Shown: positions 1,549-63,990 of the stretch, one piece after another | How positions within the stretch are numbered: position 1 is the first letter of the stretch | How the letters are laid out: every line of letters begins with the position of its first letter | DNA from: a virus | Taxonomy: Duplodnaviria; Heunggongvirae; Uroviricota; Caudoviricetes | Strand: one strand, 5' to 3' | DNA: 64,000 nucleotides | IMG/VR virus record: IMGVR_UViG_3300012348_000120 | Made by a program: the position numbers and the translations under genes | The notes under the pieces: generated by a model | The model's database searches: none | The model's input: only the letters and a program-made list of their open reading frames with translations | Told to the model about the DNA's origin: nothing

Positions 1549-1590
1549 CTTACAGGATATGTATATCGTGATTCGTTCAGAATGTCAAGC
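1549..1590 (-). promoter_or_regulatory. early sigma70-type promoter plus conserved leader (copy)
   Basis: gene-sense TTGACA-ttctgaacgaatcac-gaTATACA-tatcctgtaagc then RBS. Confidence 0.6.
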
Positions 1591-1782
1591 AGATTCTTCA
1601 ACGTAAAAGTTATGAGTTTCTTTTACGAATTGAGAAAGCCAAGCATCAACCATATCAATGTATGATTTATACTTTGCAACTGGGATTGCGCCATTCAATC
1701 CAGTGTAAGGATCATAGGTGACGCCTTTGGTTTCATACACAACGTAGATGGGATTTTCTAACAACTCAGTTTTCATCATCAC
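1585..1782 (-). CDS. hypothetical protein (start trimmed to MMKTELLENP)
   Basis: RBS agggaag before ATGATG; promoter cassette immediately upstream. Confidence 0.5.
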   Translation of the reverse strand: MMMKTELLENPIYVVYETKGVTYDPYTGLNGAIPVAKYKSYIDMVDAWLSQFVKETHNFYVEESA

Positions 1783-1790
1783 TTCCCTAT

Positions 1791-1833
1791 TGGTTACATT
1801 GTATGTATATAGTGATTCGTTCAGATAGTCAAG
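1791..1833 (-). promoter_or_regulatory. early promoter plus conserved leader (copy)
   Basis: gene-sense TTGACT-atctgaacgaatcac-TATATA-catacaatgtaacc. Confidence 0.6.
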
Positions 1834-2230
1834 TGAAAACCATAGGAAGAATTGCCATAAACATAGCAAAAATCCCACCAGCAACGACTTTCATCATATA
1901 ATTACTGGACTTCAAATCGCGAACTTGTCGTTGCAATGAATAATTTTTGCTCATCAGACTGCGATGTTCAGTTGACAGATTGTCATACATGTATTTCAAT
2001 GTCTGCAAGTCAGCAGAGTTTGCGTTTTGCTTATGATAGTTGTAATAAGCCAGTGCCTTCTCATACCAATACTTCGCGGTATGGCCATTGTAAGTAACTT
2101 CTTCAACCTTGGTGTCAAAGGATTGAGTTACTTTTCCACCTTTTTTTCGTGCCATACGCAGACAAGCAATCGCTTCATCTTCTGAAGTTGTGCTCATAGC
2201 CTTGGCGATAAGTTGGTTAGTTGTGCTCAT
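1829..2230 (-). CDS. hypothetical protein with C-terminal transmembrane helix
   Basis: 133-aa ORF; hydrophobic C-terminus VVAGGIFAMFMAILPMVF. Confidence 0.5.
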   Translation of the reverse strand: MSTTNQLIAKAMSTTSEDEAIACLRMARKKGGKVTQSFDTKVEEVTYNGHTAKYWYEKALAYYNYHKQNANSADLQTLKYMYDNLSTEHRSLMSKNYSLQRQVRDLKSSNYMMKVVAGGIFAMFMAILPMVFT

Positions 2231-2478
2231 TTTACTTCCACTTCACGATATTGAACTTCAAGCCATTCATATGCAGAAATAGCATCATTAGGAATCCAGC
2301 GACCTTTGACAAACTCATGCTCACGACCATGGTTAGGTAAGTCAGCGTAAGCCTCTTCGGCTGTTGGCCAACGATCAAGAACTACCGCGCTGTTTGGATA
2401 GTTACAACCATATTGGTCAACTTGTTGAATAACAACTTGCCATTCACACTGAATTGTTTTTGTCCTGAAGTTTTTCAT
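2227..2478 (-). CDS. hypothetical protein
   Basis: 83-aa ORF; ATGA overlap with the upstream gene. Confidence 0.5.
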   Translation of the reverse strand: MKNFRTKTIQCEWQVVIQQVDQYGCNYPNSAVVLDRWPTAEEAYADLPNHGREHEFVKGRWIPNDAISAYEWLEVQYREVEVK

Positions 2479-2646
2479 CAGTAATCCCGCTCAGTTTCAA
2501 ACATCACGCCAAAGACAAACATCAGGGCAAGCCCTGGAATAGCAAGGGCAGCAGCAACCCATAGGGAAACTCCTTCATCAATGCAACCAGCGGCAATCAC
2601 CATCAAAAGACCAATCATAACCATCACAGTGCGAAACCAAGCCATT
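2478..2646 (-). CDS. small hydrophobic membrane protein (about 56 aa)
   Basis: not in the ORF track; RBS cagaaaggaaaataca then ATG; two predicted TM helices; stop overlaps the next ATG. Confidence 0.45.
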
Positions 2647-2662
2647 GTATTTTCCTTTCTGA

Positions 2663-2929
2663 TTAGGTGCGAACCGAAATGGTTGAACCATCTTTGAATT
2701 TCATATAGAAGCCATCATAGTAGTCAGCATCACCATGATCTTTTTCAAACTTGCCATATTCTTCTTCAAGGGCATCATATGCAATCACGGGAACAGACGT
2801 ATGAAACAGCTTGGCATCACGAGGATCAAACTTGACAAACTGTGCAAGGTGAGCGATGGTGGTTGACGTATCACCTTCTGCGGGATTGATCAGAAGCCGA
2901 GAACCGAAATGAGAAGCGAGAGTTTTCAT
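2663..2929 (-). CDS. hypothetical protein (start trimmed to MKTLASHFGS)
   Basis: ATG after a conserved-leader-like RBS; the track ORF runs through the promoter. Confidence 0.5.
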   Translation of the reverse strand: MKTLASHFGSRLLINPAEGDTSTTIAHLAQFVKFDPRDAKLFHTSVPVIAYDALEEEYGKFEKDHGDADYYDGFYMKFKDGSTISVRT

Positions 2930-2946
2930 GGTTGTCTCCTTGTTTG

Positions 2947-2986
2947 CTACAGGATATGTATATAGTGATTCGTAGTTCTTGTCAAG
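2947..2986 (-). promoter_or_regulatory. early promoter plus leader (copy)
   Basis: gene-sense TTGACA-agaactacgaatcac-TATATA-catatcctgtagc. Confidence 0.6.
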
Positions 2987-3194
2987 CCACATTCGGCTCA
3001 AGACGGAAAAACCACGAGTTTTTGTTTTCGGAAAACTTCGCAAGCACACGCTCACCGCAATGACGATAAGTGTTCATCAAACGAAGGCAAGCGAGTTCGG
3101 AACCAAAGGCATATAGCGTTCCACCAATTTCTTCAACCTCAAGATTTTCTTTTGCATGGATTTCAAACTCACGCTTGGCACGGAAAAGGTTCAT
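2982..3194 (-). CDS. hypothetical protein
   Basis: ATG preceded by cctgtaaccaagagagaggaaaccag. Confidence 0.5.
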   Translation of the reverse strand: MNLFRAKREFEIHAKENLEVEEIGGTLYAFGSELACLRLMNTYRHCGERVLAKFSENKNSWFFRLEPNVA

Positions 3195-3210
3195 CTGGTT
3201 TCCTCTCTCT

Positions 3211-3252
3211 TGGTTACAGATTACTTATATAGTGATTCGTATGGAATGTCAA
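3211..3252 (-). promoter_or_regulatory. early promoter plus leader (copy)
   Basis: gene-sense TTGACA-ttccatacgaatcac-TATATAagtaatctgtaacc. Confidence 0.6.
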
Positions 3253-3262
3253 TAGAAAAAAC

Positions 3263-4513
3263 TCAAGCGGCGGCAACCGCTTGAGTCCGAGCACGTTTCA
3301 TGCCTTCTTTGATCTTTTCAACTTTCTTTTCACCATTCGGGAAAACATCGTTGAACTTCACACTCTTGAACGCTTCCCACTTAGTCAGCAGAACATCCAG
3401 TTGATCAACAGGATTGTTTTCACTACCCAGACGACCACGCTCATCGCACATACCAACCCGATGCAGAACATTCACAGTCTCAGGATCATTCAGCGAACCC
3501 ATTTCATCAAACATTTTGACGAAAGTTTTAGCAGTCAGTTCATCCAGCTTGTGCATATTCATGTGAAACCGAGTAGCTTTCATAGCACGGTCACGCATCT
3601 TAGCAGGAACAGTCAGCCGATCAGCAAAGGCTTCAACAACGGGAACACCTTTCACGTCATGACCGAAGTGCTTCGGAAAGTCTTCTTTACGAGTCAGACC
3701 TTTACCAAAGTCATGAACCAGTGCAGCAAACCGAGTTTCCAGATCAAACCCAAACTTGGCAGCTTGAGTCAGAACCAGCATGGTATGCTCAAAGGCATTA
3801 CCTTCGGGATGCCAACGACGACTTTCCATTGCAGAACACAGGGCATACACTTCAGGAAACAGAACATGCAGAGCATCACATTCCAGCAGCGTATCAAAGA
3901 ACAGACGAGGATGGGGTTCCATCAGAGCACGGCTCAGTTCTTTCCACACACGTTCAGCAGTCAGTTCGTTCAGAACACCCTTCTTGGCCATCATGTGAAC
4001 CAGTTCACGAGTTTCCTTGGCAACAGTCCATTCCGCACCAAAACGAGCGCGAAACCGAGCCAGCCGCAGAACACGAACAGGGTCTTCAACAAAAGCATCA
4101 GAAGTATGACGCAGCACTTTCGCTTGCAGATCGTCTTGACCACCAAAGGGATCAAACAGAGCAAAACGACCTTCGTCACCTTCAACAAAGAACTCAGTGT
4201 CTTCCATCCGTTGCAGAGACATACTGTTGATGGTCAGGTCACGACGAGACAGGTCTTCTTCCAGCGTCACATCAGTGCCGAACTCAGAAGTGAAACCCAG
4301 ATACCCAGTGCCAGTCTTTTTTTCACGACGAGCCAGAGCAAATTCTTCACCAGTTTCGGGGTGCAGAAACACAGGAAAATCAGCGCCAACTTTTTCAAAG
4401 CCAGCAGCCAGCATTTCTTCGACCGTGGAACCAACCACCACGAAATCTTTATCTTTCGGCTCCATGCCCATCAGCATATCGCGAACAGCACCGCCGACCA
4501 GAAACGTTTGCAT
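3263..4513 (-). CDS. cca: CCA-adding tRNA nucleotidyltransferase with HD domain
   Basis: N-terminal PolB-type NTase (GGAVRD...DxD) plus HD-domain residues along 417 aa; start trimmed to MQTFLVGG after RBS aaggaa. Confidence 0.85.
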   Translation of the reverse strand: MQTFLVGGAVRDMLMGMEPKDKDFVVVGSTVEEMLAAGFEKVGADFPVFLHPETGEEFALARREKKTGTGYLGFTSEFGTDVTLEEDLSRRDLTINSMSLQRMEDTEFFVEGDEGRFALFDPFGGQDDLQAKVLRHTSDAFVEDPVRVLRLARFRARFGAEWTVAKETRELVHMMAKKGVLNELTAERVWKELSRALMEPHPRLFFDTLLECDALHVLFPEVYALCSAMESRRWHPEGNAFEHTMLVLTQAAKFGFDLETRFAALVHDFGKGLTRKEDFPKHFGHDVKGVPVVEAFADRLTVPAKMRDRAMKATRFHMNMHKLDELTAKTFVKMFDEMGSLNDPETVNVLHRVGMCDERGRLGSENNPVDQLDVLLTKWEAFKSVKFNDVFPNGEKKVEKIKEGMKRARTQAVAAA

Positions 4514-4532
4514 TGGTGATTCCTTTCTCATT

Positions 4533-4570
4533 ACTGTTATACCATACAGTATGATTCTTTCTTTGTCAAA
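4533..4570 (-). promoter_or_regulatory. sigma70-type promoter for cca (variant: TTGACA-N17-TATGGTATAAC)
   Basis: gene-sense TTGACAaagaaagaatcatactgTATGGTATAAC. Confidence 0.5.
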
Positions 4571-4601
4571 TAAAAAAGAGGGTTTCCCCTCTTTATTTTT
4601 G
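4571..4601 (-). terminator. intrinsic terminator hairpin (GAGGG-tttc-CCCTC flanked by A/T runs)
   Basis: aaaaaagagggtttcccctctttattttt, symmetric, downstream of CDS 4593..4787. Confidence 0.6.
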
Positions 4602-8624: not shown

Positions 8625-9797
8625 TTACATTTTTGTTGTTGTGGACTCGTATGTCCGATTGTATTGATTATTTACTCGAATAAATGTTGTGCATTTACTG
8701 AGTTGTTTCAGAGTTGGTGCGCCAACATATGTGCAAGTTGATCGTATTCCTCCGAGAATGGTTTGAACCGTAGATGAAACATTTCCACGATACGGAACTA
8801 ATACTTCCCTGCCTTCACTTGCCCGATAGTCCTTGAGGCCACCAAAGTGTTTTTCATTTGCAGCATCAGAACTCATACCATAGAACTGAACAAACTTCTT
8901 TTCTTTAACAACTGGAATATATGCCCTGTATTCTTCTGGGCGTCCAGTATTTGTATATTCACCCGTGGCATACCATTTACTTATGATTTCGCCGCCGCCT
9001 TCATCATGGCCAGCAAGCATTCCACCGAGCATCACAAAATCGGCCCCTGCTGCAAAAGCCTTTGCAACATCACCAGCACAGACACAACCGCCATCAGCAA
9101 TAATATGTCCCCCAAGACCATGAGCGGCATCAGCACATTCGATGATGGCCGATAGTTGAGGATAACCAACCCCAGTTTGTATACGAGTAGTGCACACGCT
9201 GCCAGGGCCAATCCCAACTTTAACAATATCGGCTCCATTTAGAATTAACTCCTGTGTTTGATCTGCGGTTACAACGTTTCCTGCAATGATCACGATGTTT
9301 GGATAAATTTTACGAATGTTTTTCACATGCTCAACAAAATGCTGACTGTATCCATTCGCAACATCAATGCACAAGTATTTCAGCTTTTCCCCAACTCTGG
9401 CATAGACTTGAACAAATTTATCATAGTCGGAATTGCTAATGCCAATACTCATCGCTACATGTTGAGTTATACGTTCAATGTTTTGTGAAAAGAACTCAAC
9501 AAGTTCTTCCTTAGAATATGTCTTGACCAAGCAAGTAAATATGCCTTGACTGGACAGAACGTCTGCCATTTTAAATGTTCCAACGCCATCCATGTTTGCT
9601 GCCATAATCGGAACTCCCTTGTATTGAGAGTAGTGACGATCAAACACTTCATTCATAGTTTCGTTTGGACTTGAAACATAGTTTCGAAACGTATACGACC
9701 GTTCCAGACTTACATCTGAACGGCTTTTGAGTGTGCTTCGTTTTGGACGAATTAGAACATCACTATAATCAAGTAACACTTCATTTTCTATACGCAT
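8625..9797 (-). CDS. guaC: GMP reductase (IMPDH/GuaC family)
   Basis: N-terminus [29 protein letters not shown] is near-identical to bacterial GuaC; catalytic-Cys loop [11 protein letters not shown]. Confidence 0.85.
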
Positions 9798-9999
9798 TCT
9801 TATTCCTATTTTTTACGTGTTGTTTTATAAATTCAACAGGAACATTAGGATTTAAATTGACCAATTCCTGTTCAGTATATGTTTCTGGTTTGCGAACACC
9901 GAACTTGTCGAATTGTTCGTAAGCCCAATCTGTTAAATCTTTTTTGTCTTTGAAAATCATTAGTATTTTCCATGTAATAAAGGGTGGGACGTTGCCCAC
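9781..9999 (-). CDS. hypothetical protein
   Basis: 72-aa ORF. Confidence 0.45.
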
Positions 10000-10006
10000 C
10001 CTTATT

Positions 10007-10279
10007 TTACTTACCGAGAATTTGTTTGAATTCTGTCAGGGTGTCGGCATCAACTAAGTCACTTCGGTAGAGTGCGTATCGTTTTGTGTTGCCATTATAT
10101 ACACCTACTTCGGTCACATCCCCACGATCATTGGTAGAAATCATGCCGTATAGATTTTCCTTGCCGCGAAACTGCTTTGCCAGTTTAATCGCTTCATCAA
10201 GAGAAGGAGTCCGAGAACGCCGCTGGTTTGATTGATTTGATTGAGGGCGACGATTCTTCTGATTAGTTTGGTTTGTCAT
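10007..10279 (-). CDS. hypothetical basic protein
   Basis: 90-aa ORF with RBS gaggaaaat before the ATG; preceded by an unusually long (about 300 nt) leader. Confidence 0.5.
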   Translation of the reverse strand: MTNQTNQKNRRPQSNQSNQRRSRTPSLDEAIKLAKQFRGKENLYGMISTNDRGDVTEVGVYNGNTKRYALYRSDLVDADTLTEFKQILGK

Positions 10280-10371
10280 ATTTTCCTCATATTGACAAAT
10301 TTAAAAAAGAGAAAGTTTTCAACTTGAGGTGAAGCATTTCTCATTACGGCTTCACCGATTAATTAATAAGA

Positions 10372-10530
10372 ATAACGATGACGGTTACATGACACCTACT
10401 CCAAGTGGAGGTTGAAGGTTAGTTTTTTGTTTTACGAGCAGCATTCCCATTATTCGGCGCTCATCATACTAAATTAGTCTCATATATCTATTAGTCAGTC
10501 ATAACATTAAGATGTAACCGTCATCGTCGC
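10372..10530. repeat. perfect 15-bp inverted repeat (CGATGACGGTTACAT / ATGTAACCGTCATCG) separated by about 120 bp, inside a 300-nt untranslated leader
   Basis: read directly: 10376-10390 and 10512-10526 are exact reverse complements; no ORF between them. Confidence 0.6.
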
Positions 10531-10564
10531 ATTTTGTTCTCCACGGTCAAGTTCTTGTTTCTGA

Positions 10565-10603
10565 TGTATTATTTATATCAGATTCGTGTCAAAGTGTCAA
10601 GAC
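10565..10603 (-). promoter_or_regulatory. early promoter with duplicated -35-like TGTCAA boxes
   Basis: gattcgtgtcaaagtgtcaagac; TTGACA occurs twice 9 bp apart. Confidence 0.45.
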
Positions 10604-11134
10604 TTATTCACTATCTTTGTAGAAAATATGATTGTCAATCACTTTCGTTTCTACGAAGTCTGAACTCCAATACGGATTTACGTAATCCGCATGATACATT
10701 GTTGCTCCACCAGTTGGGTCTGGAATTTGCCCATATGTATGGATTGCAACTTCTGCAACGAATTGTGCAAGCATCCAAGATGTTTTATCTTTTGGTTTGT
10801 CAGACATTCCGTCTTCTGTCCAAGAGAATTGGCCATCTTGCCAAACTACTTCACATACGCTTTTTGGGTAATTTTCATTTGTAACCCGATTGAGTGTCAC
10901 CCAAGCAACTGCCCGTTGCCCAAGAAACGATTGATTTCGTGCTTCAAAATAAATATTTTTTGCAAGACAATCTGTTTGTTTTTCAATATTCACTTGTTGA
11001 ATTTCGTTGTCGATAGACTTGGCCATAGCCACACGTCTTTCCGACTCTGCTTTTACCTCATGAACTCCGAGACCCGCAAGTCCTATTGCTACAGTAGCAT
11101 TCATGAGAAACGCTGCAAGGTTTAACCTTTTCAT
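10604..11134 (-). CDS. SleB-family cell-wall hydrolase with N-terminal signal or SAR-like segment (endolysin candidate)
   Basis: Hydrolase_2-like core (CLAKNIYFEARNQS...VAWVTLNRV...YPKSVCEVVWQDGQFSW); Gly/Ala-rich weakly hydrophobic N-terminus LAAFLMNATVAIGLAGLG. Confidence 0.75.
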   Translation of the reverse strand: MKRLNLAAFLMNATVAIGLAGLGVHEVKAESERRVAMAKSIDNEIQQVNIEKQTDCLAKNIYFEARNQSFLGQRAVAWVTLNRVTNENYPKSVCEVVWQDGQFSWTEDGMSDKPKDKTSWMLAQFVAEVAIHTYGQIPDPTGGATMYHADYVNPYWSSDFVETKVIDNHIFYKDSE

Positions 11135-11154
11135 TGTTGCTCCATGTTTGTTTC

Positions 11155-11196
11155 TTTTGCATCTTACTTATATTCTGATTCGTCGGTCGTGTCAAG
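11155..11196 (-). promoter_or_regulatory. early promoter (copy) for the hydrolase gene
   Basis: gene-sense TTGACAcgaccgacgaatcagaaTATAAGtaag. Confidence 0.5.
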
Positions 11197-11201
11197 GATT
11201 A

Positions 11202-11744
11202 TTATGCGAAAATTTTCAATATTTCGAGTTCTATATAATCTTTGTTTCGTTCAATATAAGCAACATCACCGATGGAACATCCTAATAGTTCTTTTCCAAC
11301 TGGTGATTTATGACTTATAACGCCCTCAGATGGATTACTTTCCATCTCTCCAAGGATTGTGTATGTTATAATTTTGTCAGTTGATAAGTTTTTCACAGTC
11401 ACACTAAGCCCAACTTCGACCTTACTATATTCCCCCTTTTTTTTCGCTGGTATGATAGTATATGTTTCTGCTACGATTTGGAGTTTTGCAATCTCCATAT
11501 CTAATCTCATCATTTCTTCCAGCGCCATAGAGAATTCTTCATTTTCTTCTATGCCGCCGTTTTCTCTGGCATCTTTAAGTTGCTCAGAAATTAGTGGTTT
11601 CTTTTTGGAAAGGATTTGAATCTTTTCCAAAATTTGTTTTCTTCCCTGTTCGGTAATAATGTCCCCACTCACTTCGTAGTATTCCTTGTTATTATTGTTG
11701 TGGTTATATTTATCGAAAACCACAAATGAAAGAGCATTATTCAC
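11202..11744 (-). CDS. GreA/GreB-family transcript-cleavage-factor-like protein
   Basis: coiled-coil N-domain with acidic tip plus C-terminal FKBP-like domain (VEVGLSVTVKNLSTDKIITYTILGE...SPVGKELLGCSIGDV). Confidence 0.65.
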   Translation of the reverse strand: MNNALSFVVFDKYNHNNNNKEYYEVSGDIITEQGRKQILEKIQILSKKKPLISEQLKDARENGGIEENEEFSMALEEMMRLDMEIAKLQIVAETYTIIPAKKKGEYSKVEVGLSVTVKNLSTDKIITYTILGEMESNPSEGVISHKSPVGKELLGCSIGDVAYIERNKDYIELEILKIFA

Positions 11745-12009
11745 TTTGCGTAACCTTATCGTTTATAATAGAGAAAACTTCAAACAAGTTGTCATCAATA
11801 TCATTTAGGTAATTGATGTGTGATTGAAATAGCATACTCAGTAAAATCATATTTTCTGCGGTCTGAATGTCATACGCATTATATTTGTATTTCATAAGTA
11901 TGGTTATAATGGATTTCATCAACTCTAATGACTCTATTTCATCTGTGCGAGTTGAAATAGAGTCATCTTTCTTGGAACGATAGTCTTCCAAATTTATTAT
12001 ATTACTCAT
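11737..12009 (-). CDS. hypothetical protein
   Basis: 90-aa ORF; ATGA coupling. Confidence 0.5.
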   Translation of the reverse strand: MSNIINLEDYRSKKDDSISTRTDEIESLELMKSIITILMKYKYNAYDIQTAENMILLSMLFQSHINYLNDIDDNLFEVFSIINDKVTQSE

Positions 12010-12545
12010 CGGATAGACAAACCTAATGTAGCAATAGCATCTTGGACAGACTTCGCTTGAAACTTCGCATCCTGCAACGGATCATGTTTCAAAAATGTGT
12101 ATTTCTTCCTTGGGTCATCTGGAAGAATACCAAACAATGTGGCACTATCTTTGATTCCCCAATAAGGCCAAGGAACGGGCGAGTCATATTGCTTGCACAT
12201 ATTCTGAACAATGCCAATATCCATCAGAATGCGTTGTGACCATACTGTGTCACAGCCAACATACCACTTCTTCAAGTGGCGTAGCATTTCTTGTGGTGAT
12301 ACACGATTGTCTGGCGAGAATGCCATTTCAATCGCATCTTTGTCCTGAGTAGACCACCAATCCAGCGTCTCAGTGCTTACGGTTCTACCAGTGCTTTCCT
12401 GACAGTCAATATCAACCCGAAAGAAAAACTCATCAAACGGGTCTTCTTTTGTATTCGGATTGAATTTTACTCCACCGATGGATAGAACCTGTGCGGTTGG
12501 AGACACGTCAAGTGTCTCCAAATCAATCATTGCATGTATTGTCAT
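12006..12545 (-). CDS. dexA: DnaQ-like 3'-5' exonuclease (T4 DexA-like)
   Basis: Exo I motif IDLETLD at the N-terminus, 179 aa. Confidence 0.7.
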   Translation of the reverse strand: MTIHAMIDLETLDVSPTAQVLSIGGVKFNPNTKEDPFDEFFFRVDIDCQESTGRTVSTETLDWWSTQDKDAIEMAFSPDNRVSPQEMLRHLKKWYVGCDTVWSQRILMDIGIVQNMCKQYDSPVPWPYWGIKDSATLFGILPDDPRKKYTFLKHDPLQDAKFQAKSVQDAIATLGLSIR

Positions 12546-12559
12546 TATTTTTCCTGTAA

Positions 12560-13027
12560 TTAAATACCATACGTATCTAGCAATAACTGCCCAACACGTT
12601 TCATATCTACTTTCGCCCCAAATGCGAATCTTGCAGCTTGCATAAATTCACTTTTCTTTGGAGTTGTTTCTGGGGTTTTGTCTTTCATTATCGAATTTAA
12701 CAAATTCAAAATTTCTTCCTCAGATGCCATTTGTGGCAGAACACCAGAAAGAATATTCTTTTCAAAATTCAGGGCGACACGGCGACCATCATCAATATTC
12801 AGCTTTAAGTTTTCGTCAATAGTGACGATAAGTTTTTGAATAACCTTGATGGCTTCGTCTTCTGTGGTTTCACGGTTGCCGTTATTCTTGCCAACCTTTT
12901 CAATTTCGCTAAGTGCAAAAAGAATGGATGGCGCAATAGGACTGCGAGTTTTACGCAGTGCGATGGATTCAGCTTTTAGTTTTTCAATAACACTCATTTT
13001 CTTTTCCTTAGCTACATAGTCCTGCAA
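12560..13027 (-). CDS. GatB/YqeY-domain protein
   Basis: C-terminal segment ILSGVLPQMASEEEILNLLNSI...KSEFMQAARFAFGAKVDMKRVGQLL resembles YqeY. Confidence 0.55.
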   Translation of the reverse strand: MQDYVAKEKKMSVIEKLKAESIALRKTRSPIAPSILFALSEIEKVGKNNGNRETTEDEAIKVIQKLIVTIDENLKLNIDDGRRVALNFEKNILSGVLPQMASEEEILNLLNSIMKDKTPETTPKKSEFMQAARFAFGAKVDMKRVGQLLLDTYGI

Positions 13028-13403
13028 GCATTTGATAGTGTTCCCATGCTTCTTTTACGGCGGGAACGTTGTCAAGTTCGTCAATTGGAACTGCACAATC
13101 AAGCCAATAATAGTTCAGCCGAAGTGGATTTGAACCAAACTTTCGCGGTTGGTGTATCTTTCCACTGTCATATAACTTGACTGCCAGTTTCCGAAAATCG
13201 TCGTATTTTTCAGCATGTGCATACCATTCTGGATTTGACCAACCACCTCGTGTGTATCCTTCCCAGATTTGATTCCATTCTGAGTCCACGTGAGGCGAAA
13301 AGTCGGTTCTTGAAATGATGACCATTACGTCATGAAAGTCAACCTTTCCTTCGTAGATGTCACGCATACAGCGACTAAAACTCAATCCGACTTTCATTTG
13401 CAC
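13008..13403 (-). CDS. hypothetical protein, paralog A of a tandem pair
   Basis: C-terminus AVKEAWEHYQMLAGLCS matches the neighbour's AVKLAWDHYRMLSGLCK. Confidence 0.5.
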   Translation of the reverse strand: MQMKVGLSFSRCMRDIYEGKVDFHDVMVIISRTDFSPHVDSEWNQIWEGYTRGGWSNPEWYAHAEKYDDFRKLAVKLYDSGKIHQPRKFGSNPLRLNYYWLDCAVPIDELDNVPAVKEAWEHYQMLAGLCS

Positions 13404-13801
13404 AATCCTGACAACATTCTATAATGATCCCACGCCAACTTTACCGCTGGCTCCATATCTTTTTCTCTTAGGTTTATCTGATACCAGTGATCACGTATTG
13501 ACTGATTTGCTCTCACAAGCAAGTTGATCGGATTACCTGTATCGCGAACCACTATAACACCATCTTGATACAGTGTCAAGCACAAATGATAAACTTCTTC
13601 AAAATCAAATAGGTGTAACACATTGTTTCCTTTTGATAGATTGACAACCATCGGATCAACTTGACCATCATACCAGTGAGTAAACGAATCCATATTTTTT
13701 ATGTTTACTTCATGTGCGATTATACAGTAAACATCGTTGATGTTTACTTTTTTTAGTAGTATGTCGCTGACACAATACGAAAGTTTTGTTCCGAGTAACA
13801 T
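13394..13801 (-). CDS. hypothetical protein, paralog B of a tandem pair
   Basis: same length class and shared C-terminal motif with CDS 13008..13403. Confidence 0.5.
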   Translation of the reverse strand: MLLGTKLSYCVSDILLKKVNINDVYCIIAHEVNIKNMDSFTHWYDGQVDPMVVNLSKGNNVLHLFDFEEVYHLCLTLYQDGVIVVRDTGNPINLLVRANQSIRDHWYQINLREKDMEPAVKLAWDHYRMLSGLCK

Positions 13802-14520
13802 TATAGCTTTCTTAGTTTGTTATTTACTTCTATCACTTTTTCAAGGATTTCACTGTTGCTGAAGTTCAGAAAGGCTTCTGTATCCTTTGGAAAGCAGTAA
13901 CCACCAAATCCCAACCCACCTTCATCATTTGGTGCCATCATATGACTTGGACCGATGTTTGGGAATTGAGATAGAATGTTTACCATAGAGTAAAAATTAG
14001 CTTCTGGAACAAGGGAATATATTTCATGAAAAAAGGCAACCTTCGTTGCAAGCCATACGTTATGCATATACTTTACCATACTTGCGGTATGCCGATCAGT
14101 TTCCATAATTTTGGCATCAATGTAAGAAAACACATGCTTCCAGTAAAATAGCTGAGAGTGGTCCCCACCAAGAACCATAATCTGTTGGTTCTTGAAATCC
14201 TCATAAGCATGAGCCGCCCGTAAAAACTCTGGATAGTAACTCACGTTATTTGGATATAGTGCGATAAGATCAGGAGGAACAGTGCTTTTCAGCAATATCG
14301 GAATATCACCAAGTTTTTCTATGATGAACCGTATTAGAGAATCGTCACATTTTCCATCTACTGTTGGAGTAGGAAGGCATATAATAGCAGACTGAAAGTT
14401 TGAAAAACTTGAAAGGTCTGTATCAAGTTTTGGGTCAACTCGCCCAACTGTATGTCTATTTTTTTCTAGGCTTGTTGCAACAGTTTCACCAACAAACCCA
14501 CATCCGATTACTAATATCAT
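13801..14520 (-). CDS. nucleotide-sugar dehydrogenase-like protein (UDP-glucose/GDP-mannose dehydrogenase family) lacking the C-terminal sugar-nucleotide-binding domain
   Basis: Rossmann start MILVIGCGFVGETVA, ICLPTP, PEFLRAAHAYEDF, catalytic-Cys motif GFGGYCFPKDTEAF; only 239 aa. Confidence 0.7.
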   Translation of the reverse strand: MILVIGCGFVGETVATSLEKNRHTVGRVDPKLDTDLSSFSNFQSAIICLPTPTVDGKCDDSLIRFIIEKLGDIPILLKSTVPPDLIALYPNNVSYYPEFLRAAHAYEDFKNQQIMVLGGDHSQLFYWKHVFSYIDAKIMETDRHTASMVKYMHNVWLATKVAFFHEIYSLVPEANFYSMVNILSQFPNIGPSHMMAPNDEGGLGFGGYCFPKDTEAFLNFSNSEILEKVIEVNNKLRKL

Positions 14521-14720
14521 TCTTCTATCTCAGCCCACCAACAACGACAAGGAATTTCTTTGTTTGGGAAACTATCTATAATTGATTGTGGGTAGCCCTC
14601 AGAAACCAACCAACGATGGAAATCAAAATCTTCTTTGAGTGTGAAATATTCTTCATGCATCTGTTTCGGAAAGCCATACTTCCAACCCTCTGGCGGGTCA
14701 ACCATTAGAACTTTTTGCAT
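14517..14720 (-). CDS. hypothetical protein
   Basis: 67-aa ORF, ATGA coupling. Confidence 0.45.
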   Translation of the reverse strand: MQKVLMVDPPEGWKYGFPKQMHEEYFTLKEDFDFHRWLVSEGYPQSIIDSFPNKEIPCRCWWAEIEE

Positions 14721-14854
14721 TTATTCCTCTTGCTTTGAAAGTAGATACATTTTCCAATAATGCTCAAAACATTTTGGATAGTGTTCTGGGTTTGGAATCT
14801 TACTTCCAAACATTTCAATGAACTCTTGAATTTGATCGTCAGTTGGTTTTGATT

Positions 14855-45050: not shown

Positions 45051-45054
45051 ACTA

Positions 45055-45273: not shown

Positions 45274-45294
45274 TTGTTTTCCTTTATTTGCGTT

Positions 45295-45335
45295 ATGTAG
45301 TCAATCTATACTGATTCTTTCAGTTTGTCAACTCA
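45295..45335 (-). promoter_or_regulatory. early promoter (copy)
   Basis: gene-sense TTGACAaactgaaagaatcagTATAGAttgac. Confidence 0.5.
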
Positions 45336-52103: not shown

Positions 52104-52619
52104 TTATAGTCCTTCTTTGTTGATTTTGTATGGAATGATCTTTACGTCTTCAAACTTTTGACCAAACGTATCGATCCAGTGTTTCAGTCTATTTTCAGCT
52201 TCTTTGTGTGTTTCAAAACCCCACTCTTGGTGAATATCTCCCCAAGAGCCATACCATCTAAACTGCAATCTCCACCTGTCCACTAATTCAACATCAGTGT
52301 TTGGTTTCAATTTTAGCTGTCGTTCAAGTTCAGCAACACGTTCTTTGTAGAACTTTGTTTCATCAGAATTTGAATATACCACAGATTCGGCTTTGATGTC
52401 AAGTCTTTTTTCTAATACTTTTGAATTCAATGGAAGTGCGATATTTGGATTTTCAGTTGCGGATGTTTGAATATATTCTGGTGGATCACAGACGGTGTAT
52501 GGCATAACTGCCATGTTTACATAACCCTTATGTCCATCCTCATCCGAAACTTCCCATACGTTTGGAGTTGTGAGTTCAAACCCACGGCGATGACAAGTTG
52601 TGTATACTTTCATAACCAA
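52104..52619 (-). CDS. hypothetical protein
   Basis: 171-aa ORF. Confidence 0.5.
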   Translation of the reverse strand: MVMKVYTTCHRRGFELTTPNVWEVSDEDGHKGYVNMAVMPYTVCDPPEYIQTSATENPNIALPLNSKVLEKRLDIKAESVVYSNSDETKFYKERVAELERQLKLKPNTDVELVDRWRLQFRWYGSWGDIHQEWGFETHKEAENRLKHWIDTFGQKFEDVKIIPYKINKEGL

Positions 52620-54169: not shown

Positions 54170-54215
54170 AAAGTTCAAATCATTATGAAACTTTACACCA
54201 TCAATATAACACTTT
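54170..54215 (-). promoter_or_regulatory. sigma70-type promoter with about 80-nt structured leader upstream of hsp20
   Basis: gene-sense TTGACAatcaacataaaaagtgtTATATT, then hairpin gtgacgccataatgggtcac. Confidence 0.5.
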
Positions 54216-54235
54216 TTATGTTGATTGTCAATAGT

Positions 54236-54505: not shown

Positions 54506-54717
54506 CTTTTTTTGCCCGCATCTTTATCTTTTCTGCGTTTCTCACTTCCACCAACATATTCTTGGCGGTCGCGATATTCTTGAATGATGTTTTCATCAAC
54601 GCATAGTTTTTTGAACCTACGGATTGCACGTTCAACATTTCCATTCTTCACAGTGACAGTTGTCCCTGATTTAATGTGTCGCTCTTGGTCGTTGCCTTTT
54701 ATATAATGTTTAGCCAT
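54469..54717 (-). CDS. rpsU: ribosomal protein S21 homolog
   Basis: VKNGNVERAIRRFKKLCVDENIIQEYRDRQEY...KRRKDKDAGKKRWQKKL parallels bacterial bS21. Confidence 0.65.
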   Translation of the reverse strand: MAKHYIKGNDQERHIKSGTTVTVKNGNVERAIRRFKKLCVDENIIQEYRDRQEYVGGSEKRRKDKDAGKKRWQKKLRQMRND

Positions 54718-55234
54718 CTTTTGTTATAACACCTGTAATTCGATTTCCCGATTGTTTAAGTTCTTGTTCATATTTGAAGTTTGAAAGAAGTGATGCAATA
54801 TCATCTATCATGCTTGCAATCACATCAGACCCTTTCGTGATCTCCCGACCACGAAGTGGAATTGTAATTTTTACTTTTGCATTAGCTTCAAGGAACTTCA
54901 TAACCTGTTTCATTTTGATTTCAAGGTCATGAATACCGATTCCCGGTCTGATCTTTACCTCTTTTACTTCAACAACATTCTGTCGTGCTTTTTTCTCAGC
55001 ATCTTTCTGACGCTTTTTTTGCTCGTAGGTATATTTAGCTACATCAACAATTCGTGCAACAGGAGGGTTGCTTTGTAGTGTGATTACAACTAAATCCAGA
55101 TTTTTATTATAGGCAAGACTTCTTGCTTTTGATGTTTCCATAACACCAAGTTGAGTTCCATCATCATCGATGACTCTGACCTCAGTGCTTTTAATATACT
55201 CGTTGTAGACGATTGTGTTGGCGGAATTAGTCAT
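54710..55234 (-). CDS. infC: translation initiation factor IF-3 homolog
   Basis: N- and C-domains align with E. coli IF3 ([14 protein letters not shown]...LDLVVI...PPVARIVD...[14 protein letters not shown]...[12 protein letters not shown]); start trimmed to MTNSANT overlapping the clpX stop. Confidence 0.75.
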
Positions 55235-56471
55235 TTTGAGTATCGGAAAGTCCTTGCTCGTCATTGAATACCATAATAGGTTTGTTGCTTCCTTCGATAA
55301 ATTCTTTGGTGATAATCACCTTTTTCAGTCCTTCTTTTGCAAGAGTTGGTAATTTAAATTGTAGTTGTAGTAGAGATTTTTCAATAACACTACGAAGACC
55401 ACGCGCACCAGTTTTGTTATTTATTGCTTGCTTCGCAACAGACTTGATTGCATCATCTGTAAATTCAAGTTCAACATTATCAAGGCTGAACAAGCGAATA
55501 AATTGGCTTACGATGTTGTTCTTTGGCGCAGTCATTACATGAATAAGCTGTTCCTCTGACAAGTTGTCCAGTCCAACAATGATAGGAAAGCGGCCCATAA
55601 ATTCTGGAATAAGACCGAATTTCATAAGGTCTTGTGCCATAATGTTCTGCCGAACATTTACTTCATCATTTTCAGATTTTACACTTGCATTGAAGCCAAT
55701 GCCACTCTTTTTGTTGACACGGCGCTCAATTATCTTATCTACGCCAACGAATGCCCCGCCGACAATGAATAGAATGTTAGTGGTATTTACCTCAATCATA
55801 TCTTGGCCAGGATGCTTTCTGCCGCCGCCAGGGGGGACACGAACCTTGGTGCCTTCAACGATTTTCAGAAGTGCTTGCTGGACGCCTTCACCAGAAACAT
55901 CTTTTGTAATCGACACGTTTTCGCCTTTCTTGGCTTTCTTGTCAATTTCATCAATGTATACAATTCCACGCTCTGCTTTTTCAATATCAAAGTCAGCAGC
56001 AATAAGTAGACGCTGAACGACATTTTCAACATCTTCTCCAACATACCCACTTTCAGTGAGTGTAGTGGCGTCCACTTGTGCGAATGGGACATCCAATATT
56101 TTAGCAACTGTTTTTGCGATCAGTGTTTTGCCTGTGCCAGACGGACCCAAAAGAATGACGTTAGATTTCTCAATCTCAATGTCACTATTTGTATGATTGA
56201 TACGCTTGTAATGATTATATACGGCCACACTCAATACTTCTTTTGCTTCATCTTGACCAATGATGTATTGGTCAAGATGTGCTTTTATTTCTTCTGGTGT
56301 GGGGAAACTGTCAGTAGATTTGTGCTTTTCCGACTTTTTCTGATGAATAATGTCATAGCATAAATCAATACACTCATCACATATATAAATTCCTGGCCCT
56401 GCAATTAGCGTGTTGACTTCGGATTTGTTCTTGCCGCAAAACGAACAAGAGTAGTTTTTATTATCAGACAT
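55227..56471 (-). CDS. clpX: ClpX ATP-dependent unfoldase (full length, with C4 zinc-binding domain and IGF loop)
   Basis: CSFCGK...CDEC ZBD, Walker A GPSGTGKT, pore loop GYVG, IGF docking tripeptide, sensor motifs. Confidence 0.9.
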
Positions 56472-59482: not shown

Positions 59483-59724
59483 TACTTGATTTCCTTGCCA
59501 GTGGTGATTTCGTAAATAGCACCTTCTGCAAGTTTCACATTGAGAAATTTTACACCCTCATCGAGGATGTCCCAGTTGTCATGGGTTGAGGGATGATTAA
59601 TGAAATGTTGTTTTGCCAAGTCAAGGGCATCAGTGTATGTCGCAGTCGCAGCAAACGACTTGATGTCGTCAAGAGCAAGGCGAATAAGTTCTTCATTGGT
59701 CATGGCGATCTCCCGATTACTCAT
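59482..59724 (-). CDS. hypothetical protein
   Basis: 80-aa ORF. Confidence 0.45.
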   Translation of the reverse strand: MSNREIAMTNEELIRLALDDIKSFAATATYTDALDLAKQHFINHPSTHDNWDILDEGVKFLNVKLAEGAIYEITTGKEIK

Positions 59725-59870
59725 ACAATATAGAGTGATTCGGGAGATAAGTCAAGTAAAAAAGTATTGTGCAATCTCACAGTCTGCAATGATTGTGCCA
59801 AGATAAAGAATGGTCGGTTCAAAGTTTTTGTTAGTTCGAAAGGCGTGTGCGAAAATAAGTGCGATTGTAA

Positions 59871-60218: not shown

Positions 60219-60511
60219 CAGGTTCGTAGGTCATATTCAAGTTGCACAAAGAAACGCTTTACTTTGTGGCAAATCGTATTAGGGCGAATGTCTTTTTGAT
60301 TCCAATTGCGGACAGCAGATTCGATTGCTTCATCTTCTGTTTCTTCAATAAAGGTTCCGCCTTGAGCAGAACAATGCTCACATTTTACATATGCCTTTAC
60401 GCCCAACCGATGTTTGCCAGTGTTGATGCTAATACCGTCTTCACCGGCACCATTTCCACAAAACGGGCAGTATTCAAGCATATGTCCCATCAGAACTCTT
60501 CTACTTCCCAT
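60203..60511 (-). CDS. lar: Lar-family restriction-alleviation-like zinc-ribbon protein
   Basis: EYCPFCGNGAGEDG...CEHCSAQG Cys4 pattern typical of Lar. Confidence 0.55.
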   Translation of the reverse strand: MGSRRVLMGHMLEYCPFCGNGAGEDGISINTGKHRLGVKAYVKCEHCSAQGGTFIEETEDEAIESAVRNWNQKDIRPNTICHKVKRFFVQLEYDLRTCWGLY

Positions 60512-60819
60512 TGTGGCGCAACACCGTTATAGACGGTTTCAATGCCATATGGCATCTTACCATCGCGTTTGAGCAGGAATTCTTCAGTTTCAAACCAATG
60601 TGAGTGTAGGTTCTGTTGGTATCTCGCAGAAGAACGAGCACCCGAAAGTGTTGGATACACTCGTGCATAGATGGGGTCTTTGTAGTCCACCGACTTTGCG
60701 TGGCTTGTAGTTACATATTTACCAGTAGAAAGGTCTTTGACACGATACGGCATTACGTTTTCCTTATGAATAGTGAACGAGTGATACAAGTTTCCAAGGC
60801 TTTTCTGCAAGCCAGTCAT
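60490..60819 (-). CDS. hypothetical protein
   Basis: 109-aa ORF. Confidence 0.45.
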   Translation of the reverse strand: MTGLQKSLGNLYHSFTIHKENVMPYRVKDLSTGKYVTTSHAKSVDYKDPIYARVYPTLSGARSSARYQQNLHSHWFETEEFLLKRDGKMPYGIETVYNGVAPQWEVEEF

Positions 60820-62202: not shown

Positions 62203-62451
62203 TTACTCAAAGTAAACATGAAGGTTGCGATAGGTGGCGTTTTCGCCAGCAAGAAGAACAGACCCGTCAATAATATCGCCACCATACCCAGTTTCTTTCA
62301 TCGACTCTTCGTCATAAGCGATGGTGACTTGAATGTCGCTGCCATACTTCACACGAGTCTTGGTGATGTAACCAAGAAACGGCACATCATTCTTATAACC
62401 AGTGACAACCGAACCTTCAGCATTGTAAAGGGCGTTCATGAAGCTGTTCAT
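62203..62451 (-). CDS. hypothetical protein, paralog of CDS 63156..63359
   Basis: shared motif TRVKYGSDIQVT versus SRVKYGGKVQHT. Confidence 0.5.
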   Translation of the reverse strand: MNSFMNALYNAEGSVVTGYKNDVPFLGYITKTRVKYGSDIQVTIAYDEESMKETGYGGDIIDGSVLLAGENATYRNLHVYFE

Positions 62452-62467
62452 CGTGTTTCCTCTCTCT

Positions 62468-62511
62468 TGGCTACAGATTATGTATACAGCGATTCGTATG
62501 GAAAGTCAAGC
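62468..62511 (-). promoter_or_regulatory. early promoter plus leader (copy)
   Basis: gene-sense TTGACTttccatacgaatcgcTGTATAcataatctgtagcc. Confidence 0.6.
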
Positions 62512-62747
62512 GATGTTTTCGATTCTTTTGTATTATGCGTGTATGGAATGATGCGAATGTTATTTTCATCGCCTTCCATCATAAGCATAAGTGCTAACGA
62601 CTCTTCGTTGTAAGAATGATATATCACACCAATAGTATGATATATTCCATAATCTTTGATGCGTTCCTTGAACTCGCGTTTTGGTATTCCCGCAAGTCCT
62701 TGGGGAATGATTTTCCAGAACAAAGGAACGGGTGGAATGCTGGACAT
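62478..62747 (-). CDS. hypothetical protein (start trimmed to MSSIPPV); 3' end reads through the downstream promoter
   Basis: ATG 2 nt after the upstream TAA. Confidence 0.4.
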   Translation of the reverse strand: MSSIPPVPLFWKIIPQGLAGIPKREFKERIKDYGIYHTIGVIYHSYNEESLALMLMMEGDENNIRIIPYTHNTKESKTSLDFPYESLYT

Positions 62748-62748
62748 A

Positions 62749-63090
62749 TTAGTCCAGCCGCGACCCCGCCCACACATCCAGATCAGTCAGTTCACGCATC
62801 TTTGCAGCATAGGCAGCGGCCCCTGCTTCTTTGATGTCAATGTTCTGGCCAGGATATTTGGAGGGGTTCCACAGTTCCCACGATTTGCCAGTCCAGTCTT
62901 TGCGGAAGCCAATCGATTCAAGGAGTTTACGTTCAGCGCGGCCACCTTTGGTGTTACCTTTTTCTTTGGGCGTGACTTTCACCCAAGCAAAACCGCACAT
63001 ACCGAAGTCACCGCCCCACTGTTTCAGTGCAGCATCCGAAGCGGCTTTTGCTTCGTCAAGAGCGAGAGAGTGAACGAGTTGAATATCCAT
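62749..63090 (-). CDS. hypothetical protein
   Basis: 113-aa ORF after a promoter cassette. Confidence 0.5.
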   Translation of the reverse strand: MDIQLVHSLALDEAKAASDAALKQWGGDFGMCGFAWVKVTPKEKGNTKGGRAERKLLESIGFRKDWTGKSWELWNPSKYPGQNIDIKEAGAAAYAAKMRELTDLDVWAGSRLD

Positions 63091-63105
63091 TGGAAGTCCC
63101 TTTCT

Positions 63106-63150
63106 ATTGGCTACATTGTATGTATATAGTGATTCGTTCAGAAAGTCAAG
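63106..63150 (-). promoter_or_regulatory. early promoter plus leader (copy)
   Basis: gene-sense TTGACTttctgaacgaatcacTATATAcatacaatgtagcc. Confidence 0.6.
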
Positions 63151-63155
63151 AACTA

Positions 63156-63359
63156 TTACACTACAACCAGTTCATCTTCATCAACAAGAATCGTATCTCG
63201 GTCTTCGCCAAACACGTTGATGGCCGAAAGAAGTTTTACCGTATGCTGGACCTTGCCACCATACTTCACACGAGATTCAGAAATCTTGCCAGCATAGGGA
63301 AAGATACCCATATAGTTGCCAGCAACAAAATCACCTTCGCGGTTCCAAGAAGCCATTTT
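63156..63359 (-). CDS. hypothetical protein, paralog of CDS 62203..62451 (start trimmed to MKMASW)
   Basis: the upstream part of the track ORF is leader sequence. Confidence 0.45.
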   Translation of the reverse strand, partial: KMASWNREGDFVAGNYMGIFPYAGKISESRVKYGGKVQHTVKLLSAINVFGEDRDTILVDEDELVVV

Positions 63360-63372
63360 CATATCCTCTCTA

Positions 63373-63582
63373 TTAGCAGAAGCCAAACGCAGAAAGACCA
63401 AGCCGAATGAATTTGTCAGCAGCGTCTTTTGCAAACTCTTCAGTTTTCAGAAACATCGTGGTCATCAGTTGTTTACCTTCGTAAAGTTCAACAACCCAAG
63501 TCGTCTTGGTGACGAACCCATCATAATCACCGTAGCACACATCAACATCAATGAGTTCGGGAGTGATAGTCACGTTACGCAT
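63373..63582 (-). CDS. hypothetical protein
   Basis: 69-aa ORF after a promoter cassette. Confidence 0.45.
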   Translation of the reverse strand: MRNVTITPELIDVDVCYGDYDGFVTKTTWVVELYEGKQLMTTMFLKTEEFAKDAADKFIRLGLSAFGFC

Positions 63583-63595
63583 CTGATTTCCTCTC

Positions 63596-63640
63596 TTGGT
63601 TACAGGATATGTATATAGTGATTCGTCTTGAATGTCAAGA
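63596..63640 (-). promoter_or_regulatory. early promoter plus leader (canonical copy)
   Basis: gene-sense TTGACAttcaagacgaatcacTATATAcatatcctgtaaccaagagaggaaatcagATG. Confidence 0.65.
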
Positions 63641-63644
63641 CATT

Positions 63645-63932
63645 TTACACACGAATTTTGTTTACATTCCGAATTTCTTCGTCGTGTTCTTTCACAATCA
63701 TGGAAGAAGGATAGTAAAACCGACGAGAACCAAGACCATCAACCTCAGTGGGATAGTCTTTGGCGGGCAAGTAGCAGAACCCGTTGTAGTTGCCAGACTC
63801 ATGGAGAACAGCTTCAATGAACGAAGCAACACCTTCCCGTTCATCGGCTGACGTATTTTTTGCGGCAAGAAAGTGATTTGCCATACGCAGAATTTTACCA
63901 ACTTCAATCGTTTTACGAGCGGGTTTCGTCAT
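63645..63932 (-). CDS. hypothetical protein
   Basis: 95-aa ORF. Confidence 0.45.
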   Translation of the reverse strand: MTKPARKTIEVGKILRMANHFLAAKNTSADEREGVASFIEAVLHESGNYNGFCYLPAKDYPTEVDGLGSRRFYYPSSMIVKEHDEEIRNVNKIRV

Positions 63933-63944
63933 CTGTCTCTCCTT

Positions 63945-63990
63945 GCTGACTACATGATATGTATATAGTGATTCGTTAGGATTGTCAAAT
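63945..63990 (-). promoter_or_regulatory. early promoter plus leader (copy)
   Basis: gene-sense TTGACAatcctaacgaatcacTATATAcatatcatgtagtcagcaaggagagac. Confidence 0.6.

Follow-up and report, generated by a model that had tools for sequence, protein, structure and literature searches.

The window analysed here, the whole 64,000-nucleotide (nt) stretch from IMG/VR virus record IMGVR_UViG_3300012348_000120, belongs to an uncultured jumbo phage, of which it represents an early or accessory region. It holds about 145 genes, all on the minus strand, including genes for a CCA-adding enzyme, RNA ligase, ClpX, ClpS, IF3, S21, PTH2, HSP20, DHFR, thymidine kinase, and an IMPDH/GMP-reductase-family protein, and no core structural or replication genes were found within it. 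Ahead of many small genes lies a repeated intergenic cassette in which a promoter is joined to a short leader, and this cassette is the subject of the present analysis. In gene sense (minus strand), the orientation used below for all sub-type strings, features, and cassette sequences, its consensus reads cTTGAC(A/T), N7, (A)CGAATCAC(TA), TATAnn (nn being ca, ag, or tt), 5–6 nt, T-R-T-A-R, a purine-rich Shine-Dalgarno sequence, and ATG. An initial annotation of this DNA had described sigma-70-type, early-style promoters joined to a leader, and this description held: the arrangement TTGAC(A/T)-N17-TATAnn is found in all 18 copies, one of them with TTTACA, and the Shine-Dalgarno sequence and start codon follow directly on the 3′ side.

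Searches for TTGACW-N7-CGAATCR with at most one mismatch returned 15 matches in the window, every one on the minus strand, where 0.69 would be expected. A weight matrix trained only on cassette copies from other contigs, and then run on the window, recovered 14 canonical sites with scores of 11.7–45.8, compared with a best score of 5.8 in shuffled sequence and of −17 on the plus strand. Four additional copies are spacing variants with the CGAATCA block displaced by 1–2 nt (842-847, 4564-4569, 10595-10600, and 32950-32955), for a total of 18 cassettes between positions 795 and 63988, all on the minus (coding) strand and concentrated at 0.8–4.6 kb and 59.7–64 kb. The repeats are therefore real and uniformly oriented, as first proposed, but they number 18 rather than about 20, and the first copy (795) lies below position 1549, where the series had been thought to begin. 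A 19th match, at 52375-52402, is located inside an open reading frame (ORF), and the orthologue carries a mutated GAATC; it was therefore counted as a chance match and dropped.

The copies are tightly fitted between genes. They typically occupy the whole gap from one stop codon to the next start codon; the copy at 10572-10600, with non-coding sequence behind it, is the exception. The upstream stop codon falls between −4 and +10 nt from the −35 hexamer in 10 of the 13 canonical copies for which the distance was measurable, and in the remaining three it lies 239–498 nt upstream on a crude gene map. Four copies (59750-59755, 27519-27524, 2980-2985, and 1827-1832) use the TGA within the −35 hexamer itself (TTGACA or TTGACT) as the stop codon of the upstream gene, so that there is zero slack in these intergenic regions. 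On the downstream side, the start codon is found 23–32 nt past the −10 hexamer in all 14 canonical copies.

The hexamer located 17 bp from the −35 is TATAca, TATAag, or TATAtt. The −10 had initially been read as TATATA, which is 2 nt out of register and would give a 15-bp spacer. With the −10 placed at TATAca and the usual 6-nt discriminator behind it, the predicted start is therefore the R of T-R-T-A-R, which falls at 63603, 63114, and 62474 in three of the copies, and the 5′ untranslated region (UTR) expected from this promoter geometry would measure about 15–26 nt, for example GUAACCAAGAGAGGAAAUCAG-AUG. In the corrected register, the string CATATCC(T) therefore covers the last bases of the −10 together with the discriminator and would remain untranscribed, and the part of the conserved block that is predicted to be transcribed is just GUAACCAAGAGAGG, which comprises the start site and the Shine-Dalgarno sequence. 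The conserved transcribed leader, originally put at about 30 nt, shrinks to only about 14 conserved nt in the predicted RNA.

Similarity between the copies is uneven. About nine of them (1583, 1827, 2980, 3247, 27519, 62504, 63144, 63633, and 63983) are nearly identical over 45 bp, as had been suggested for the cassettes as a whole, but the rest differ, and the exact 22-nt string taken as the leader occurs only three times in the window at up to three mismatches. Downstream of the −10, the copies form sub-families (CCAAGAGAGG, CCAATAGRRAGGG, TCAGCAAGGAGAGA, and others). Exact occurrences of CGAATCAC in the window number 11, of which 10 are within cassettes.

In order to see which positions are retained, the cassettes were compared with those of three close relatives that are collinear with parts of the window at 82–88% identity (IMG/VR 3300042260_000232 and 3300047480_000545, and NCBI JBQVCE010007910). 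Across 11 orthologous cassette pairs, counted as differences over sites, the N7 spacer diverges by 36% (28/77) and the discriminator by 12.7% (7/55), while divergence is 3.6% for CGAATCAC plus two positions (4/110), 3.6% for TRTAR (2/55), 3% for positions 40-45 (2/66), 1.5% for the −35 (1/66), and 0% for the −10 (0/66). A wider search with TTGACW-N7-CGAATCACTATATA retrieved 92 stretches; they come from 75 IMG/VR contigs, the longest of 342 kb, with a GC content of 31–42%. In the logo of 133 unique clade copies, the start region is conserved at T35 (98/133), R36 (132/133), T37 (125/133), A38 (126/133), and R39 (129/133), with an information content of 1.0–1.7 bits over T-R-T-A-R, and further conserved bases are A12 and A13 and C21, T22, and A23. 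An A/T-rich, UP-like tract precedes the −35, at −8 to −3 counted from it. None of these positions was fixed by the search pattern. Past TRTAR, the logo shows only generic purine richness.

The combination of position-specific divergence (0–4% against 36% in N7) and clade-wide fixity indicates selection and not mere recent duplication, and the spacer element CGAATCAC, the start-site motif, and the first leader bases are under purifying selection. The claim that conservation reaches beyond the −35/−10 hexamers was thus upheld by the alignment and logo of the copies and by the orthologue footprint, and the motif analysis did not find conservation confined to the hexamers. Recent duplication or gene conversion of a mobile cassette, with spacer and leader unselected, would explain why nearly identical sub-family members sit at opposite ends of the window, and is in keeping with the cassettes being recombination junctions in relatives (see below). 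We nevertheless regard it as very improbable, since the N7 spacer has diverged in the same copies in which CGAATCAC, the −10, TRTAR, and positions 40-45 have barely changed, and since the same positions are fixed across contigs of 31–42% GC content whose coding DNA is less than 70% identical to that of the window.

The role of the cassettes as junctions was evaluated by comparing 173 clade copies pairwise together with 150-nt flanks. Flank homology was found on both sides in 128 pairs, downstream only in 73, and upstream only in 19, the one-sided cases representing 51 unique pairs. Among the unique downstream-only pairs, the end of homology falls between −10 and +13 in 39 of 40, and among the unique upstream-only pairs it falls between +7 and +57 in 8 of 11; two loci, for instance, share every base as far as the end of TTGACAAATCTAACGAATCA and are unrelated beyond it. 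In a more distant relative, a module made up of the 1583 cassette plus its gene adjoins a homologue of the window region at about 58.2 kb. Homology between related genomes therefore repeatedly breaks inside the cassette, which is the pattern known from the PeSL elements discussed below. The initial proposal that the cassettes promote recombination is borne out in this sense for related genomes by the 51 unique chimeric pairs of loci, but no such event is seen in the window.

Conservation downstream of the −10 had led to the suggestion that the leader is a cis-acting RNA element. Such an independent element (a translational operator, a RegB-type site, or a standby site for IF3 and S21) would fit with the first 10 leader positions being as conserved between orthologues as the −10 hexamer, with the recurrence of leader sub-types such as GTAGTCAGCAAGGAGAGA ahead of unrelated genes, and with the presence of both IF3 and S21 among the phage-encoded proteins. 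However, the predicted UTR of 15–26 nt is mostly Shine-Dalgarno sequence, the clade logo beyond TRTAR is only generically purine-rich, and the +1 to +20 region has a purine content of 60–85%. When folded, the +1 to +45 regions are no more structured than shuffled sequence, and if anything less so (mean z +0.47), and Rfam searches of the window, at the gathering score and at E up to 0.1, returned three transfer RNAs (tRNAs) only. The leader motifs CCAAGAGAGG, GTAACCAAGAG, and TCAGCAAGGAGAG are found ahead of start codons only where a promoter is present, and none of about 130 promoter-less genes carries one. The RegB target GGAG is contained in 6 of the 14 canonical leaders, and a Pfam scan of about 140 window ORFs reported no RegB family, nor any DNA-binding regulator, sigma factor, or anti-sigma factor. 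Given leaders that show no structure and are found only together with the promoter, there is no support for a separate RNA operator, and both it and the RegB-type processing site appear improbable to us. We therefore read the transcribed conservation as start site, initial transcribed sequence, and Shine-Dalgarno sequence.

The spacer element CGAATCAC, at −23 to −13, is invariant, is not AT-rich, and lacks a convincing dyad; a search of the cassette for dyad symmetry, as a sign of an operator, gave only a weak and inconsistent GACATTC/GAATCAC half-match. An independent search, anchored solely on TTGAC[AT]-N17-TAnA, a Shine-Dalgarno sequence, and a start codon, identified 118 unique promoters with CGAATCAC and 49 without it. 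The latter have T at position 21 in 35 cases and G at position 22 in 35 cases, which is the TG position of an extended −10, and their RTAR is weaker. The clade thus contains a second promoter class, TTGACA-N14-TGn-TATAnn without CGAATCAC, with examples at clade loci L002, L011, and L023 and in the window at 54203-54231, and the two classes may represent different temporal or regulatory groups. Our guess is that CGAATCAC sets apart a temporal promoter class, being read by a phage- or host-encoded factor or contacted by RNA polymerase. A bolder proposal is that CGAATCAC(TA) is recognized by a dedicated phage factor, which might be a repressor specific to this promoter class, a sigma appropriator, an antiterminator of the Q type, or a second polymerase, and which would switch a regulon of about 20 or more early cassettes on or off. 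We hold this to be unlikely; if true, a single regulatory code would be common to at least 75 IMG/VR contigs of uncultured jumbo phages, alongside the TGn-type class.

Two specific mechanisms of this kind can be weighed against the sequences. On the model of lambda Q, the cassette would be a loading site for a phage antiterminator or RNA-polymerase modifier, with CGAATCAC as the DNA-binding element and the TA motif at +2 as a −10-like pause inducer, and polymerases starting there would pass the terminators between the small genes. The layout of lambda pR′ likewise has conserved elements between −35 and −10 and at +1 to +6; terminator-like hairpins do occur between some cassette genes, and known holoenzyme contacts leave CGAATCAC unexplained. 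A sigma-dependent pause element, however, must have A as the second and T as the sixth base of its hexamer. Among 133 clade copies, the TAnnnN hexamer of the cassette (+2 to +7) ends in T, at position 42, in only 50, and the window sub-types TAACCA, TAGCCA, and TAGTCA, which are common, end in A. With 18 copies placed ahead of early-style ORFans, instead of one late promoter, and with no Q-like protein or Q homologue identified, this model is distinctly improbable.

Under the second mechanism, a phage single-subunit RNA polymerase would recognize the ACGAATCACTATA block as a T7-type promoter lying within the sigma-70 promoter, and each cassette would serve two polymerases. The block matches 12 of 13 bases of the T7 consensus core ACGACTCACTATA (−13 to −1), an agreement whose chance probability we estimate at about 1e-4 given the shared TATA. 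Yet it never occurs without TTGACA at a fixed distance, its +1/+2 would be TA, an invariant part of the −10, rather than G, and the upstream A/T-rich, UP-like tract suits the sigma-70 holoenzyme. A tblastn search with T7 RNA polymerase (E ≤10) found no match in 875 kb of window and clade DNA, which consists of incomplete genomes. A T7-type promoter is, on this evidence, extremely improbable.

We consider it likely that the cassette is a complete minimal early-gene expression unit read by host sigma-70 RNA polymerase, and that it also acts as a homology patch. The polymerase would recognize the consensus −35 TTGACA, the 17-bp spacer, and the −10 TATAnn, together with the clade-specific spacer element (A)CGAATCAC(TA) at −23 to −13 and the start-site motif T(−1) R(+1) T A R, and the product would begin with a purine-rich, unstructured 15–26-nt 5′ UTR that is essentially a Shine-Dalgarno sequence. 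Conservation past the −10 would then arise because the start site and initial transcribed sequence take part in promoter function, in choosing the start and in promoter escape, as they do in T5 N25-type promoters, with the remainder of the leader acting as the ribosome-binding site. Since many small genes are flanked by identical cassettes, these would also provide homology patches for the exchange of modules between related phages, as do PeSLs.

Several points weigh against this reading. We know of no sigma-70 holoenzyme contact that explains a conserved, non-AT-rich block at −23 to −13, and the proposed start site and early timing rest on promoter geometry and on the analogy to T5. The upstream stem-loop that defines PeSLs is present in only 3–4 of the 18 window copies. 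Over the approximately 22 kb in which the window was compared with its three closest relatives, 12 cassettes are collinear and the sole indel (insertion or deletion) found is away from any cassette: this 280-bp difference from relative L013, at 60478-60759, corresponds to one small ORF with no flanking cassette, and cassette recombination is therefore seen in the clade and not in the window. Finally, a search of 185,579 bacterial and archaeal genomes gave two matches to the cassette motif, which is chance level and offers no clue to the host, and blastn against 50,697 phage records did not find the cassette among cultured phages. Megablast of 20 kb of the window against the same 50,697 records returned no relative.

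If the proposed function is correct, the cassette would be a signature by which early promoters and the borders of modules can be recognized across a widespread clade of uncultured jumbo phages, with uses in transcription-unit annotation, in temporal-class prediction (CGAATCAC versus TGn), and in the detection of recombination junctions. It would extend to an unrelated phage lineage the idea, known from T5 N25, that selection acts on the start site and initial transcribed sequence of strong phage promoters. The invariant non-AT spacer element provides a concrete target for finding a new transcription regulator, and the cassette could serve as a compact, strong part combining promoter and ribosome-binding site. 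The individual copies are listed in Table 1.

Table 1 Cassette copies in the window, all on the minus strand, with predicted transcription starts (+1) and neighbouring features; aa, amino acids.
Copy	Span	−35	−10	Predicted +1	Start codon	Remarks
Variant	795-847	842-847	TATAGT, 819-824	812	ATG, 795-797	CGAATCAG shifted +1; heads a small ORF and the tRNA cluster 163-634
Canonical	1527-1588	1583-1588	TATACA, 1560-1565	1553	ATG, 1527-1529	100-aa ORF
Canonical	1777-1832	TTGACT, 1827-1832	1804-1809	1797	ATG, 1777-1779	
Canonical	2927-2985	2980-2985	2957-2962	2950	ATG, 2927-2929	88 aa
Canonical	3192-3288	3247-3252	TATAAG, 3224-3229	3217	ATG, 3192-3194	70 aa; terminator-like stem-loop 3259-3288 immediately upstream; PeSL-like composite form
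Variant	4511-4594	4564-4569	TATGGT, 4541-4546			AGAATCA shifted −2; terminator-like stem 4575-4594; ahead of the CCA-adding enzyme gene
Variant	10572-10600		TATAAA			CGAATCTG; no gene follows, but about 270 nt of conserved, structured non-coding sequence (10296-10566)
Canonical	11132-11195		TATAAG			CGAATCAG; start region TGCAA; between a GreA-like gene (immediately upstream) and a cell-wall hydrolase gene (downstream)
Canonical	27466-27524	27519-27524	27496-27501	27489	ATG, 27466-27468	75 aa
Weak	28043-28099	TTTACA	TATATT		GTG, 28043-28045	CGAATCGT; matrix score 11.7; ahead of a Toprim-domain ORF
Variant	32902-32955		TATATA			CGAATCT shifted −1; ahead of a 58-aa ORF and an SPFH gene
Canonical	44993-45051		TATAAG			Leader GTAGTCAGCAAGGAGAGA, sub-type in common with copy 63983
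Degenerate	45271-45331		TAGATT		ATG, 45271-45273	AGAATCAG; matrix score 21.8
Canonical	59701-59755	TTGACT	TATATT			AGTAA start region
Canonical	62449-62509		TATACA			CGAATCGC; TGTAG; CCAAGAGAGAGG
Canonical	63088-63149					TGTAG; CCAATAGAAAGGG
Canonical, type copy	63580-63638					TTGACAttcaagaCGAATCACtaTATACAtatccTGTAACCAAGAGAGGaaatcagATG
Canonical	63930-63988					Window edge; T-run ahead of the −35; terminator-like gcttcggcctcttttttt there in orthologues

Two features adjoin individual copies. The −10 of the cassette ahead of the CCA-adding enzyme gene is overlapped by a perfect palindrome, TACTGT-N8-ACAGTA (4532-4551), which we take to be the E. coli-type LexA/SOS box consensus; its expected count at up to one mismatch is 0.15, and both half-sites are kept in relative L088. 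The stretch at 10296-10566 (minus strand) is a candidate phage non-coding RNA of about 270 nt, predicted to be transcribed from the variant cassette at 10572-10600. It contains a 16-bp long-range stem, has a minimum free energy of −68.5 kcal/mol (z = −4.33), differs from its L088 orthologue by few mismatches, ends in a terminator-like hairpin and T-run, and has no match in Rfam.

Among the neighbouring genes, a translation and proteostasis set consists of IF3, ClpX, ClpS, S21, PTH2, and HSP20 (54710-55264, 55227-56471, and small ORFs), the CCA-adding enzyme, and the three tRNAs (163-634). A GreA/GreB homologue encoded at 11202-11744 (minus strand) contains both Pfam domains and matches PDB 1grj with E = 1e-14, and the tip of its coiled coil reads NGGIEENEEF, compared with HGDLKENAEY in GreA, the first catalytic acidic residue being replaced by G. 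Gre factors stimulate promoter escape and rescue poor escapers (PMC12464699), and the phage homologue may be relevant to promoter escape at strong cassettes. One window protein, with more than 8000 metagenomic homologues, has an identical counterpart among JGI proteins, encoded on a contig of 350,385 bp. The best cultured matches are to an Alishewanella phage and Salicola phage SCTP-2; these nearest cultured matches weakly suggest that the host is probably a gammaproteobacterium. The promoters had at first been likened to T4-type early promoters, but the gene content does not support a T4-type phage: no T4 core gene was seen in the window, and the only trace is one small ORF matching the Pfam Gp23 major-capsid family (E = 3e-8).

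Of the known systems, the PeSLs (promoter-early stem-loop cassettes) of T4-like phages (Arbiol et al. 2010, PMC2839356; Comeau et al. 2014, PMC4122927) resemble the cassette in overall design. As described in PMC4122927, on which this comparison is based, they combine an A/T-rich tract and a stem-loop with a sigma-70-like promoter, to which a Shine-Dalgarno sequence and start codon are joined, and are repeated ahead of ORFans and at indel junctions. Both are composite intergenic repeats with an A/T-rich tract, a sigma-70-like −35/N17/−10 and, at the 3′ end, a Shine-Dalgarno sequence and start codon, and both are placed ahead of many small ORFans. Both are also sites of module swapping between related phages, in the case of the cassette within the clade at large. 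Unlike in PeSLs, the upstream stem-loop is restricted in the window to the copies with stems at 3259-3288 and 4575-4594, the 63988 copy (by its orthologue), and possibly, in weak form, the copy at 59755, while the other copies begin 0–10 nt after the upstream stop codon or overlap it; in AT-rich relatives the stem-loop is common. The PeSL description is also without the invariant non-AT spacer element CGAATCAC and the strongly conserved start-site motif of the window cassette. A further difference is that no cassette-linked indel was seen between the window and its closest relatives.

The T5 early promoters (T5P24-P38 and 'repeat b/c' of AY587007, and PN25, whose sequence matches T5 at 100%) provide the parallel for the transcribed region. 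In the annotated T5 genome, 70-nt 'putative early promoters' abut start codons, often with a terminator upstream, and 'repeat b/c' is annotated inside several of these 70-nt features, in their promoter-proximal part just ahead of the start codon. A repeated segment from the −10 to the Shine-Dalgarno sequence is common to T5 and the window. Their TATAAT is followed by 6 nt, then by Y-A-T-A-A-A-T-T-G-A, and then by an GAGAGAGGAG-like leader; this start region resembles the T-R-T-A-R-(gtt) of the cassette, and the purine-rich GAGAGAGGAG region doubles as the Shine-Dalgarno sequence. The N25 promoter loses about 10-fold of its full-length RNA when +3 to +20 is replaced, and its native transcribed sequence, which is rich in purines, has been called optimised for promoter escape (PMC12464699). 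A class-specific non-hexamer motif, in the discriminator, is a further feature common to T5 early promoters (PMC7472727). T5 differs in having TTGCTT, an AT-rich spacer, TATAAT, an ATATT discriminator, and no CGAATCAC, where the window has TTGACA, CGAATCAC, TATAnn, and a variable discriminator. In addition, there is no DNA similarity between the two, and no T5-like phage is among the best protein matches.

The closest cultured relative by one protein (58% identity), Alishewanella phage vB_AspM_Slicko01 (OQ508956), has an analogous arrangement: at least 12 consecutive small genes at 9.5–15.4 kb are each preceded by a near-identical TTGACT-N17-TATACT cassette with the start region C-A-T-A-A-A-G-T-T-T (CATAAAGTTT) and a short leader. 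The sequence is different, however, and a 9-bp palindrome with compensatory variants, absent from the window cassette, extends over the spacer and −10. In Slicko01, the genes at about 9500-15340 are preceded by GTTGACTtttcAAGCTAGTAnnnnTATACTAGCTTCATAAAGTTTAC..., and variants alter both palindrome arms together (AAGCCAGTA / TACTGGCTT), which points to a hairpin, or else a symmetric operator, overlaid on the promoter. Set beside these systems, the cassette is a known type of phage early-gene unit, PeSL-like and T5-like, whose sequence version is new and includes one conserved element left unexplained; this version is common to a large clade of uncultured phages.

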